Shown here one piece after another: positions 22,345 through 59,266 of a DNA stretch of 64,000 nucleotides. The notes under the pieces were generated by a model. The model was not told the DNA's origin. It saw nothing but the letters and a program-made list of their open reading frames with translations, and searched no databases. How positions within the stretch are numbered: position 1 is the stretch's first letter; each line of letters begins with the position of its first letter. Location of the stretch: positions 36,580,001 to 36,644,000 of the forward strand of contig OZ024745.1 in NCBI GenBank assembly GCA_964016885.1, written 5' to 3'. The DNA is from Eledone cirrhosa. Taxonomy: Eukaryota. The position numbers and the translations under genes are program-made.

Positions 22345-22627
22345 ATAAGGAAAAAAAAATGAAATCGAAAATGCAACTGGAGTCTTTTTTTTTTTAAAGT
22401 ATATATTCATTTGGTTCCTTTACCGGTTTCGCAGTTCTTCTGCTTTTCAAAAGTTGAATTGAGATAGATGGTTTTTCTCACAGATGTGAGAAAAACCACA
22501 AACCCTCCATCTCAATTCTACTTTTAAAAAGCAGAAGAACTGCGAAACCGGTAAATGAACCAAATAAATATATACTTTTTAAAAAAACGACTCCAGTTGC
22601 ATTTTCGATTTCATTTTTTTTCCTTAT
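22345..22627. mobile_element. Fold-back (palindromic) mini-element with ~135-bp arms carrying an HHR
   Basis: AAGGAAAA..TGAAATCGAAAATGCAACTGGAGTC... mirrored by ...GACTCCAGTTGCATTTTCGATTTCA..TTCCTT; central hairpin GGTTTTTCTCACA-GA-TGTGAGAAAAACC. Confidence 0.9.
22415..22459 (-). ncRNA. Minimal type-I hammerhead ribozyme, U3:A8 core variant
   Basis: Minus strand: CTT-TTGAAAA-GCAG(AAGAA)CTGC-GAAA-CCGG-TA-AAG; the plus-arm copy has core TTAAAAA (G5A). Confidence 0.7.
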
Positions 22628-23129
22628 ACTTTCACTCGTGTAGGCCACCTCGGTTTTTTTTTCATTTAAAAAAAAAACCTCACTTTCTAATATATATATG
22701 TATAAAGAAAAACGATGGAGTCGGATCCATAAATCCTTTATACAGATATAACTTTATGATACACTTCGGCTGCTAGTGCACTTCTTATTATATATGTATA
22801 TATATATATATGTGTGTTTGTGTGTGTGTATGTACGTATGTATGTGTGTGTGTTTGTGTGTGTGTAAGTATGCATATATGTGTATATATATATATATGTG
22901 TGTGGGGGGGGGGGGGGGTATAACATGATTCTGGTTATATTATAATTAATTTTATAGTTTGTGAATGCGAGCATAAGCAAGTAGTCATCGCTATTCTGGT
23001 CGTGTTCACGTTTGATTTTATAGCTTGATTATCAATGCGTATGTAGTGAGATGCATTAATTGGTGCTATTATATTGTCATTGGTTAATAATTTGTGTCGA
23101 GTTATTGTTACAGTAGGTGTGATTATATA

Positions 23130-23270
23130 GTTTGTGAGAATTGAAGAAATGCCAGCGTCGTTTGCGTCTTTGGATTAAACATTCCCTTGAGTTCAAATCC
23201 TGCCGAGATCAACTTTATCGTTCATCCTTTTGCGGTCGATAAATAATGTACCAGTTTGAATTAGGGTGAA
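23130..23270 (+). mobile_element. tRNA-derived SINE copy (degenerate)
   Basis: GAGTTCAAATCCTGCCGAG B-box then TTCATCCTTTTGCGGTCGATAAATAATGTACCAG. Confidence 0.75.
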
Positions 23271-23646
23271 TTCTTTCTTTTTCAGTAAGAAATCGGCTGT
23301 GCTGCGTTTTAAGAATGATGCACTCCACCAAGTTTTAAATGTCCAAAGCCCAAGTCAGGTTGGTGTCCCTGCGAAACCACCAGGAGTTTAAAACTATTTT
23401 CCTTTCATTCTTTCCTTGATTTATTTCTGCAGCTTATCAAAATTGTAATATGCTTTATCAATCAGAAAATGTATTAACTATAACCATTACATCATGAAAG
23501 AACCATGTTAGCCATTTAATGAGGCTATCTCTAGTACTTTAATGTTGTGATTCGTTTATTTACAGGTATTCATCCAGTGATTACTTTAGAAGCTTCTCTC
23601 TTCAGTAAATTACCAACACTACTTCGGTGATGTTATGTATGACCTG

Positions 23647-23835
23647 AGCGGTGGATTGGCAGTATCGGTAGAGAGTCGGACGCCATGCTTTCCAGCATAG
23701 TTACGTCCCTTTACGGTCTGAGTTCAAACCCTGCCGAGATTAACTTTGCCTTTCACCCTTACGGGAGTCAATAAAATAAAGTACTAGTAATACACTGGGA
23801 TAATTGCTGGCCTTGTGTCAAAAGTAGAAACTGTT
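23647..23835 (+). mobile_element. tRNA-derived SINE copy (Deu/Nin-core-like)
   Basis: A-box-like TGGCAGTATCGGTAGAG, B-box GAGTTCAAACCC, core CTTTCACCCTTACGGGAGTCAATAAAATAAAGTACTAG, tail ATTGCTGGCCTTGTG. Confidence 0.85.
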
Positions 23836-24323
23836 ATGTATGACCTGAGTATATGATGGTTAGTTCGTCATCGTTAAGCTGGTCTCACCACAGTATGTCC
23901 AAATGGTATCTGGTCATGTCTTTAAAAATTTGAGCCATTTTTCAGTGATATAAAGTTTGGACATTCCAAGTAGCGGTGTTTGTGGTTTGTTTGATGTAGC
24001 AAACGTGGGTAGTCAGGATCGAGATTTCCTTTGGGATTTGATCCGGACACGTCATGCTCAATTTATATTGATTTGGTTCCTTGATACCATGCCAGTTGTC
24101 CTCAAGAATTTAAAAATTCATAGTGGTTTCTGTGGCGATGAGTCATTTTACGAGGCAGGGGTACCTGCTCACTAGTAAATTAAAGTTATATATATATAAA
24201 TTTAATTTACTATTGAGCAATCAATGCCTCAGTGTGTCCGATTGCCACACTTAGTCGATATCCTTAAGAAGCAGTGTTAATATTAATATATGTGTGTGTA
24301 CATACAGATGTATATATATATAA

Positions 24324-24482
24324 AGAAAGTGTGGTAAGGAACCAGCTGAACCATAACGCACCAGAGTACTCGATACTTACGGTAGTAAAGTGGGTAATAG
24401 GAAAAGAGTCAGGACGCCTGAGTTCGGATCTAGCTGTCGAAACGGTCGGAGCTCAGCCGTCGGGGTCCTGACTCTTTTCCTA
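24324..24482. mobile_element. TA-flanked hairpin mini-element, family H1 (also 39430-39622 and 53410-53571)
   Basis: TAGGAAAAGAGTCAGGAC...GTCCTGACTCTTTTCCTA hairpin plus a shared ~80-bp tail. Confidence 0.85.
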
Positions 24483-24680
24483 TATATATATATATATATA
24501 TATATATATATATATATATATATATATATATATATATATATATATACAGTATACAGAGAGAGAGAGAGAGAGAGAGAGAGAGAGAGAGAGAGAGAGAGGA
24601 GAGAGAGAGAGAAAGAGAGAGTGAGAGAGAGAGGGAGAGAGAGAGAGGGAGAGAGAGAGAGAGGGAGAGAGAGAGAGAGA
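24481..24680. repeat. (TA)n plus (GA)n microsatellite
   Basis: Direct sequence. Confidence 0.95.
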
Positions 24681-24874
24681 TGAGTATTTCAAAACATCAT
24701 TGATTACCATATGACTACGCTTGTTCTGAAATATTTTACATCACGAAAAAACAGAGTTTCTGTTTATTTTCTAGGGAGTAATTTTACTAAACGTTTTGTA
24801 AAATAGTTTATTCATAAAATCACAACAGTTTTTTAATATTTTTTTTCCATAGATACCCGGTCACAACGTTTGAT

Positions 24875-57102: not shown

Positions 57103-57372
57103 TTCCAGCTCTGTGCACCTAACCTCTGCATGAACCCAGCCACCTAGCTGCCTTCCACTGCATATTGCACATTGAGCACATGCCTTTACGCTTTGGCTTC
57201 TAACTAATTCACCAAACTCTCCTATCCTATCTCCTCTCCTATCTCCATCTCTCTCTTTAAGATTGGTTACTCTTGAACTGTGTGTATATATATATTTTTT
57301 TATTTTTTTGTTCTCCTTAAGTGTGTGTGTATAGAGGGAGTCTATGCGTACGGATGTTGTTATCTGTGTGAT

Positions 57373-57570
57373 TGTGTGTGTGTGTGTGTATGTGTGTGTG
57401 TGTGTGTGCATATGTGTGTGTGTGTGTGTGTGTGTGTGTGTGTGTGTGTGTGTGTGTGTGTGTGTGTGTGTGTGTGTGTGTGTGTGTGTGTGTGTGTGTG
57501 TGTGTGTGTGTGTGTGTGTGTGTGTGTGTGTGTGTGTGTGTGTGTGTGTGTGTGTGTGTGTGTGTGTGTG
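57373..57570. repeat. (TG)n microsatellite
   Basis: Direct sequence. Confidence 0.95.
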
Positions 57571-58066
57571 CGGGTGGACGTGTGAACCCAGTAGTAATTC
57601 ATCGAAGTGTGGCAGAAGGGAACAGCTGCTGGTCAGTAGAATTCACACCTGTTGGTCAGATATATGATGACGTAGAAAAGCAGCAGCCAATAACAGGATG
57701 CGCGAAGTGGATGTTTTCGACGCTAACACCCCAGTGAAGGAATTTTCTCCGAAATCATTAGACGTGTCCGTCGAACCTACAGATCCAGAATCAGATAGAT
57801 CCACACAATGATCGTGTCTCTAGCTGTCCGCCGGCGAAACAATTGTAACACACAATAAATTGAGTTCAGATGCATCACTGATTTTTCGTTTTATATTATG
57901 TACGATATATATACACGATTTCAGATAAAGAATCTTGCTAAACAAATTCAGAAACGAAATATATATATATATATATATATATATATATATATAGATATAT
58001 ATATATATATATATATATATATATATATATATATATATATATATATATATATATATATATATATAT

Positions 58067-58232
58067 AGTTAAGTTATTCCAGGTTGAATCGGAGGTAACC
58101 ACAGTAAGTAAGGTACTCAATACATAGCAGAGTATAAAAGTCTTAATATACATGAGATTCTACAGGACGTGAACTGTTTCATTCTTGAGAAATCATCAGC
58201 AATGAAACAGTTTTAGTCCTGTAGAATCTCAT
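58067..58232. mobile_element. TA-flanked hairpin mini-element, family H2
   Basis: ATGAGATTCTACAGGAC..ACTGTTTCATT...AATGAAACAGT..GTCCTGTAGAATCTCAT plus an 80-bp tail shared with 33538-33619. Confidence 0.8.
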
Positions 58233-58248
58233 ATATATATATATATAT

Positions 58249-59096
58249 ATATAAATTTAGCGAGAATCGCATTTCGGCGGGTAGAAATTAGCGAAACGCA
58301 ACTTCCGAATTGTATTGACAAGCGCTCAATGGATATGAAGATGCCAGAGCTCTAAACATAAGTTTAAAAGGTCATACAAAACTGAGACGATGGTTAAGAA
58401 GCCATTAACCACCTAAGCCAAACAAAGCGAACAAGCTAAACGGGTCAAAGAAAATAAGATATGATTGAAATATTTACCCGGACCCCTGGGAAGATGGTAT
58501 ACTCCGATATAGGGTTTCTGCGACACCTAAATCAATAATACTGTCTGCTTATAAAAAATAATAAGCTTTTGGTATAATGATCGAACAAGGATATCACTTT
58601 CTCTACAGGTATTTTGCTCTGCGTGCGCCAGAGTCTCACAGCGTTTGAAAGCACATGTGAGGTTCTAAGGGGAGAAACGTTTTGGCAAACAAATTCAGGA
58701 TGTGTAGTCATTGCAAAATTTGCAAAAATAGCACATAACGAATTAAGCTCTCAACCGAGTGGTTTTTAAATAAACTTAAGCGATTAATCAGTCAATAGAA
58801 TTAAATAAAAGAATAATAAATGAGTAAAAAAAATTAACTGGTTAATCGCTAGATTTGGGAGATTAGTACAAATATAAATTTAGCGAGAATCGCATTTCGG
58901 CGGGTAGAAATTAGCGAAACGCAACTTCCGAATTGTATTGACAAGCGCTCAATGATATGAAGATACCAGAGCTATAAACATTAGTTAAAAAGGTCATACA
59001 AAACTGAGACGATGGTTAAGAAGCCATTAACCACCTAAGCCAAAAAAAGCGAACCAAGCTAAACGGGTCAAACAAAATAAGATATGATTGAAATAT
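58249..59096. repeat. TA-flanked 1.36-mer: ~225-bp direct repeats (58249-58473 / 58872-59096), unit ~623 bp
   Basis: ATATAAATTTAGCGAGAATCGCATTTCGGCGGG...GATATGATTGAAATAT occurs twice. Confidence 0.9.
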
Positions 59097-59193
59097 ATGA
59101 TTGAAATATGATTGAAATATGATTGAAATATATGTATATATATATATATATATATATATATATATATATATATATATATATATATATATATAT

Positions 59194-59266
59194 ATATGGA
59201 GAAGAAGTTTATGAAACGGAAATTCTTTATACCCGCATTTCCGTTTCATAAACTTCTTCTCCATAT
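59194..59266. other. ~28-bp-arm hairpin at a TA-repeat boundary
   Basis: ATATGGAGAAGAAGTTTATGAAACGGAAAT...ATTTCCGTTTCATAAACTTCTTCTCCATAT. Confidence 0.85.

Follow-up and report, generated by a model that had tools for sequence, protein, structure and literature searches.

Endonuclease-bearing Penelope-like elements (EN+ PLEs), which encode a reverse transcriptase (RT) with a GIY-YIG endonuclease at its C terminus, leave insertions that combine 5' truncation, an inverted 5' copy, a head-to-head arrangement and an optional tail at one end with (TA)n targets and a hammerhead motif in the pseudo-long terminal repeat (pLTR) (PMC8557442, Fig. 2; PMC3846280). Here we analyse 64,000 nt of the Eledone cirrhosa genome (GenBank assembly GCA_964016885.1, contig OZ024745.1, forward-strand positions 36,580,001 to 36,644,000; hereafter the window), where inverted repeats of seven PLE families have these traits in common with the published insertions, the hammerhead motif in some of the families. 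The palindrome arms are almost certainly the 3' ends (pLTRs) of protein-coding PLEs in all seven families, and we favour, as the probable course of events, that a single RNA is primed from both ends of the cut DNA, the two resulting complementary DNAs (cDNAs) then being joined. A first-pass annotation of the window had suggested that the density and polarity rule of these palindromes may be undescribed; head-to-head pairs, a one-sided tail, TA targets and opposite-strand hammerheads are all already published, and what we see is a known layout in new families.

Head-to-head copies were reported to be the most frequent arrangement, with palindromes at the junction, and self-priming on an antisense template was proposed (PMC3846280); an inverted 5' copy, a one-ended tail and a (TA)n bias are also on record, with the mechanism of their formation stated to be open (PMC8557442). 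The available text of the EN+ PLE papers gives no counts for the one-short-one-tail rule that we describe below or for the way in which it is independent of apex length. Minimal hammerheads and their dimers have been described, including opposite-strand pairs 100-700 bp apart that were interpreted as truncated PLEs (PMC4209133); a type I core, a palindromic helix III and opposite-strand dual motifs are shared with our insertions, whereas here the core of one family is U4C and its stem II very long, and three families show the layout with a half-hammerhead or none. The Poseidon PLE protein of an anole cuts and extends both strands in vitro and is predicted to dimerise; two start sites flank its tail, and hammerhead cleavage is dispensable (PMC11167929). 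An AT-rich target is common to both systems and two end sites likewise flank the tail here, while inverted products and second-strand synthesis are not addressed in the available text on Poseidon (PMC11167929).

Two further systems invite comparison. Non-LTR retrozymes (10.64898/2026.07.22.740005) have type I hammerheads related to those of PLE pLTRs; they are non-coding head-to-tail arrays, whereas the insertions here are head-to-head ends of coding elements. In L1 twin priming, a single RNA is primed by both target ends, and joining of the cDNAs produces a 5' inversion (PMC2837659; 10.1101/2024.12.14.628481). In our insertions, by contrast, two fixed sites would each have served for copying the same stretch, and a palindrome results. 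L1 inversions involve adjacent, essentially non-overlapping parts of the element and keep the poly(A) end. As the arms described here overlap fully, L1-type twin priming as such is rejected, and only its working is comparable. A two-cDNA model for PLEs was not found in the literature searched, subscription papers and supplements lying outside its scope.

Fold-back insertions in the window

The six inverted repeats named by the first-pass annotation are all present at the positions it reported, with arms 86-97% alike (self-comparison and arm alignments), and about ten further inverted repeats lie between 22 and 60 kb of the window (self-comparison). A (TA)n or (AAT)n tract adjoins each of the six on at least one side, and in six of six the sense direction points away from the apex, judged by motif and by the orientation of the family open reading frame. 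An unpaired one-sided extension had been claimed as usual; it is present in five of the six and absent from the palindrome at 44520, both arms of which extend past the short end site, the right one being interrupted where a fragment from a different family begins. We refer to each family by the start of its palindrome, to other genomic loci by L numbers, and to the short and tail end sites as A and B; where no strand is given, the feature spans both orientations.

22344-22628: head-to-head pLTR pair of a putative Neptune-type PLE family, (AAT)n at left
22629-22690, + strand: 3' tail of the right arm of that pair (long end site B), TA after it (end-site mapping)
36003-36342, - strand: left arm of the insertion at 36134, carrying a tail of about 125 nt (36003-36130) and short at the apex (alignment)
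36365-37475, + strand: broken PLE frame in the loop (RT thumb, CxCx5C linker, GIY-YIG-like end; frame reading), part of the tail-less right arm of the 36134 insertion
37984-38203, + strand: right arm of the insertion at 36134, which stops in (TA)n at short site A and has no canonical hammerhead core
38788-39349: 38841 insertion, left arm with a 55-nt tail (38788-38840), TA on both sides
39037 (-) and 39154 (+): hammerhead cores of the 38841 insertion (motif scan)
39427-39636: small fold-back (39427-39545) with a tail of about 90 nt, from a young hammerhead-less PLE family
39665-40106: fold-back (39665-39756) with its apex within a PLE endonuclease frame
42915-43348: 42962 insertion, left arm with a 45-nt tail (arm alignment)
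43115 (-) and 43196 (+): hammerhead cores of the 42962 insertion (motif scan)
44489-44897: 44520 insertion, both arms passing site A, right arm broken off
44676 (-) and 44739 (+): hammerhead cores of the 44520 insertion (motif scan)
53409-53583: a second 39427-family fold-back, with its tail (self-comparison)
55423-56268, + strand: one-armed copy of the 38841 family with a GIY-YIG frame (55423-55863)
56297-57280: 56298 insertion with a right-side tail of about 180 nt (57103-57280)
56544 (-) and 56855 (+): variant CCGAUGA cores of the 56298 insertion, with a long stem II
58146-58238: small fold-back with a left tail and the 3' half-hammerhead of a family seen in L192 (resemblance by eye)

More TA-flanked inverted repeats with a one-sided extension, lacking a hammerhead core, lie at 34135-34598, 42474-42857, 52873-55372 and 59194-59266. 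At 44895-44965 (+) the 3' end and tail of a 42962-family copy directly abut the 44520 insertion at its broken right arm.

Coding parents of the arms

Each named arm was searched in its own 3.0-Gb genome, which gave 553-2319 candidates, of which 30 loci were kept per family; of frames, the last 1.5 kb was fetched. Mapped on a long natural copy, the loci are linear, 5'-truncated elements. A PLE frame is contiguous with the arm, on the same strand, at 8/30 (42962), 16/30 (36134) and 4/30 (56298) loci, and walking upstream gave frames at 13/20 (44520) and 11/20 (39427). The 3' end of the 22345 family lies downstream of a PLE endonuclease frame at 19 of 20 loci, and the coding parent of the 38841 family is shown by its one-armed window copy with an endonuclease. 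RT or GIY-YIG frames are thus found upstream in all seven families: the PLE origin proposed by the first-pass annotation is borne out, and the arms are therefore ends of coding PLEs and not the non-coding PLE satellites that it had inferred. A retrozyme or other non-autonomous satellite is rejected on the same ground, the existence of coding parents for all seven. Head-to-tail tandem pLTR units of retrozyme-like appearance do occur beside an inverted copy (L221:4936-6327, L230:8435-9878 and G000:C1:15465562-15466029); the arrays at L221 and L230 are distinct from the head-to-head insertions.

Among six proteins scanned, two passed the Pfam cut-off for GIY-YIG (E 3e-6 and 5e-5), neither of them from the Hydra-type families (0/4); RVT_1 had no match in the PLE fragments, and Pfam overall found nothing in three PLE fragments of the window. 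The RT motifs YLDD, YRDD and YVDD were recognised by eye. The Hydra clade is defined by a CxCx5C linker, an endonuclease without the internal cysteine pair (CCHH), a DKT motif and a (TA)n target (PMC8557442). By their linker motifs, the 36134, 44520, 56298 and 39427 families would sit near this clade: all four have the CxCx5C linker and no CCHH, with DKT in 39427 only (L358). The 42962, 22345 and 38841 families appear to lie near Neptune/Nematis, two clades that the motifs do not tell apart. A CX2-5CxxC linker and a CCHH endonuclease were seen by eye in 42962 and 38841, and 22345 was placed by its 35-51% identity to the 42962 protein. The L129 query protein, which contained antisense untranslated sequence, was excluded and its matches were left unused.

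Polarity and density across the genome

Of 180 loci, nine were removed as repeated loci or segmental duplicates, leaving 171 that are non-redundant. The inverted copy stands at the 5' side in 101 of these, 58 are one-armed, 11 run past the fetched flank and 1 is spurious; an inverted piece at the 3' side was seen in 2. L015, a spurious low-complexity inversion, was left out of the counts. In a genome sample of 80 evenly spaced 10-kb stretches (800 kb), all 17 motif-bearing insertions are head to head, so that the polarity noticed in the window holds elsewhere in the genome; in two of the 17 the apex lies inside stem II. The 39427 family has 23,111 exact 30-mer matches genome-wide, and among the first 100 matches listed the close pairs are 17 head to head and 0 tail to tail.

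The same 800 kb contain 72 fold-backs with loops of up to 50 nt, against 10 in the 64 kb of the window, which is somewhat dense yet unexceptional for this genome. Compared with published PLE insertions this is a very high density, with not all of the 72 assigned to PLEs. A (TA)4 lies within 25 nt of an end in 58 of the 72 fold-backs, as opposed to 15% of random position pairs, and priming at TA repeats, as suggested at the outset, is judged right.

End sites and a proposed route of integration

Two end sites are found in every family, a short one (A) and a tail one (B); they are separated by 45-180 nt, and TA-like words terminate both. Both ends were scorable in 75 of 101 two-armed loci. Four families were searched with a query that left both ends free, and there 50 of 50 pairs are A+B; in the two families where B was forced by the query there are 22 A+B and 3 B+B. 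A set of 50 pairs from the 39427 family, one possibly a false pairing, gave 45 A+B, 1 B+B, 0 A+A and 4 unclassified. In these four unbiased families (those with free ends), the one-armed copies stop at A in 22 cases and at B in 21.

Nor does the tail follow the longer arm. Among 72 scorable insertions the tail arm is the shorter at the apex in 32, the longer in 19 and equal within 12 nt in 21. With differences of at least 50 nt, it is shorter in 24 and longer in 16, and excluding the 44520 family the counts are 24 shorter, 17 longer and 16 equal; in the 39427 family they are 10, 13 and 22. The 36134 insertion of the window illustrates the point, with a short tail arm and a tail-less arm that holds 1.6 kb with a frame. 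A snapped-back cDNA cannot template 3' sequence that is absent from it; therefore plain snap-back of a single cDNA, as first proposed for this window, fails, given the 32 insertions whose shorter-at-apex arm owns the tail and the lack of any short-short pair among those scored. The one-short-one-tail rule, its independence from apex length and the variants that the arms share form a new mechanistic clue.

We posit instead that both ends of the cut prime on one RNA. The endonuclease would cut both strands of (TA)n, whereupon one DNA 3' end would pair with the RNA at site A, through a UA-rich word, while its counterpart would pair with that RNA at site B; since the ends would pair with different sites of one RNA, the same site would never be used twice. 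The downstream cDNA would displace the upstream cDNA, so that the region is copied twice, and each cDNA would stop spontaneously or run off the RNA 5' end (the start behind a TATA-like box), run-off leading to loop-less palindromes. Pairing of the two cDNA 3' ends would then involve 0-3 bases, in many cases together with brief templated fill-ins, and the second strand of either cDNA would be templated by the other. PLE RTs are not known to have RNase H. We lean, if with less assurance, towards regarding this as a third PLE integration route, with two fixed priming sites, a stretch reverse-transcribed twice and cDNAs that template each other.

Could a single cDNA still suffice? In the alternative that survives best, one cDNA or antisense RNA self-primes as a hairpin, and the tail is placed at random by endonuclease resolution, or the apex is trimmed by later deletions. 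It would suit the 21 of 72 pairs whose loops are small or absent, the variants shared between arms, the microhomology at junctions and the four B+B pairs, and it has published antecedents in the proposals of self-priming (PMC3846280) and of tails from resolution (PMC8557442). We nevertheless consider it unlikely. An extra step is required for the 32 pairs whose tail belongs to the arm that reaches less far at the apex, the cuts would have to be staggered by 45-180 nt, and the zero A+A count is left unexplained, though half of the one-armed copies end at A; moreover, loop-less joints through TA (L014, L136) cannot prime as a hairpin. Against the later-deletion version, tail-shorter pairs are no older than the others (identity +0.06 versus -0.55 and -0.86, p 0.065, a weak proxy).

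One template or two

In the 39427 family, a subfamily 7-mer is identical between the arms of 44 of 50 pairs, where about 19% would be expected from allele counts. For the six named families, the distance of an arm to its own partner lies below the family median in 32 cases, above it in 5 and level with it in 33 (n=70). An arm-specific C/T difference in 39427 was set aside as a selection artefact, T occurring in 1 of 100 unselected matches.

These counts bear on a second alternative, in which both DNA ends prime on two RNAs, or on two pLTR copies of one transcript, held in an asymmetric protein dimer, the RNAs possibly being paired via the palindromic stem III. Some loci do have discordant arms, a protein dimer has been predicted (PMC11167929), and stem III is mostly self-complementary, with palindromes that outlast the loss of the hammerhead. 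We find this distinctly improbable, however: the 44/50 concordance demands a common source for both RNAs, a single broken RNA suits arms with a common end point remote from the start, and two free RNAs would permit A+A. A mixture of one-template and two-template insertions is possible.

Apexes and junctions

Copies of one family differ in apex position, over a few to 1000 nt, and the junction letters vary among copies; the apex is thus formed at insertion, one of two outcomes that the first-pass annotation had set out. Apexes pile up 31-36 nt behind boxes that we take to be TATA-like in the 42962, 22345, 44520 and 39427 families, and the apex of the 42962 insertion in the window is itself its family's 5'-end hot spot, about 31 nt behind such a box. 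The hot spots of 38841 and 56298 (references L124 and L164) lack a TATA box, and adjoin what is presumably a YY1 site. We infer that transcription starts at the apex hot spots. At the 42962 hot spot, raw reads of three further animals show a roughly tenfold drop in depth; being reduced-representation DNA, with one strand-switch joint on a linear copy among the reads listed, they are not decisive for the apex. In L136, L159 and L041 the arms stop together far from the start site.

Of 86 junctions, 26 are clean, and 16 of these overlap by at least 2 nt, against 16.5% by simulation. Loop-less joints via a self-complementary TA were seen in L014 and L136, and many other junctions have brief fill-ins, either inverted or repeated. 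A 42962-type apex is crossed by short-read contigs from a different run, with at least 31 letters on each side (two records); since they cross the hot-spot apex, it is not a long-read chimera. The arms also differ in sequence and end at family-specific sites.

That the palindrome itself moves, as a viroid-like rod RNA that is non-coding and has a ribozyme on either strand, is scarcely credible and largely refuted: the apex does recur at one position in several 42962, 22345, 44520 and 39427 copies and the majority of copies are short and non-coding, yet apex positions and junction letters otherwise vary, the recurrent apex lies at a promoter-like start site, each family leads to a coding element, three of the seven are without a hammerhead core, and in the rod the core is fully paired (pairing probability 1.0 in predicted folding). 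The notion of viroid-like ribozymes in both polarities falls with it, as either strand yields nearly the same RNA, with one sense hammerhead whose core is sequestered. A fold-back DNA transposon or miniature inverted-repeat transposable element (MITE) is likewise rejected, the ends differing by the tail and the centres varying.

Hammerhead motifs

A minimal hammerhead had been reported in both arms of all six palindromes. This holds for 38841, 42962 and 44520 (CUGANGA...GAAA, stems I and II) and not for the other three. The 56298 insertion has a CCGAUGA core (U4 to C) and a stem II region of roughly 95 nt, and of the hammerhead the arms of 22345 and 36134 have no more than one half, with GAAA, the palindrome and the cleavage triplet; the 22345 palindrome, for instance, has a hairpin, GAAA and a palindromic hexamer without CUGANGA. 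That motif is absent from the 22345 and 36134 arms, from aligned family copies and from the 1.7-kb family reference copies. By family, the pLTR hammerhead is canonical in 3/7, variant in 1/7 and absent in 3/7, a tally made from sequence only. The U4C motif at 56845-56975 is conserved in its family and retains a long stem II and a short stem I on folding. A lone unpaired canonical motif, whose family is also present in L254, lies at 41328 (+).

A custom hammerhead descriptor, conservative enough to miss the 38841 pair, found 77 motifs in the 800 kb of genome stretches and 1 in 400 kb of locally shuffled sequence. Stem III is self-complementary in 59 of the 77, and 42 lie inside an inverted pair; hammerhead-less families still keep short palindromes. 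A shared stem II variant of 44520 is not compensatory. Among the Rfam matches listed for the window (150 of 205, mostly sub-cut-off microRNA models) there was no hammerhead, and the listed microRNA-model matches fell on hairpins and microsatellites. In three families the 5' ends of inverted arms do not pile up at the predicted cleavage site, main arms with that end point having been excluded by the queries. The hammerheads would be passengers of the pLTR.

Other repeats in the window

Two broken elements of the long interspersed (LINE) type, with RVT_1 frames (Pfam) and shared flanking repeats, lie at 7364-10782 and 12796-16291 (+). A long non-LTR element at 16713-21699 (-) has a 785-aa RVT_1 + zf-RVT frame plus endonuclease-like and upstream frames. 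A dispersed short repeat family, probably a short interspersed element (SINE), recurs at 23648-23845, 31249-31769, 32166-32746, 46403-46586 and 62537-62693; in appearance it may resemble repeats of octopus genomes, as may the microsatellite load.

Discussion

Several observations weigh against priming of both DNA ends on one RNA. Its steps are inferred from fossil insertions, and it needs strand displacement by the PLE enzyme, a proposed step. The tails measure 45-180 nt, as compared with 30-40 nt published for PLEs, and the Poseidon start sites are without homology to the cut DNA, whereas the sites here end in TA-like words (PMC11167929). The loci are best-scoring copies, except L181-L260 and L321-L350. 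Four B+B pairs exist, five of the tail-shorter 44520 cases were favoured by the query's own junction, and a one-sided apex deletion after insertion could reverse apparent arm lengths. Of the 86 junctions, 60 are unscorable, with extra or diverged bases, and a single hot spot supplies 4 of the 16 microhomology cases. As for the common template, the two arms of a pair diverge no less from each other than copies do among query-selected main arms, the arms of the 38841 window pair differ at 11 of 17 informative columns, one T/G site of the 42962 family is discordant between arms in 7 of 10, and the arms of L341 are discordant at shared variants; such discordant pairs fit two RNAs or later mutation.

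The counts of end sites, of tail and apex length and of shared variants nonetheless separate candidate mechanisms for PLE inverted repeats and tails, and they yield direct predictions for the existing in vitro PLE system. There is also a practical side: these insertions can be mistaken for microRNA precursors, MITEs or viroid-like RNAs, an annotation trap, and, with some 9 fold-backs and 10 hammerhead motifs in every 100 kb, they make up a large potential source of double-stranded RNA. If priming of both cut ends on one RNA is true, a single rule would explain why the pLTR is inverted, why the tail is one-sided and how the second strand is made, and the genome of E. cirrhosa would hold some 10^5 fossil records of this route, transcription start sites included.

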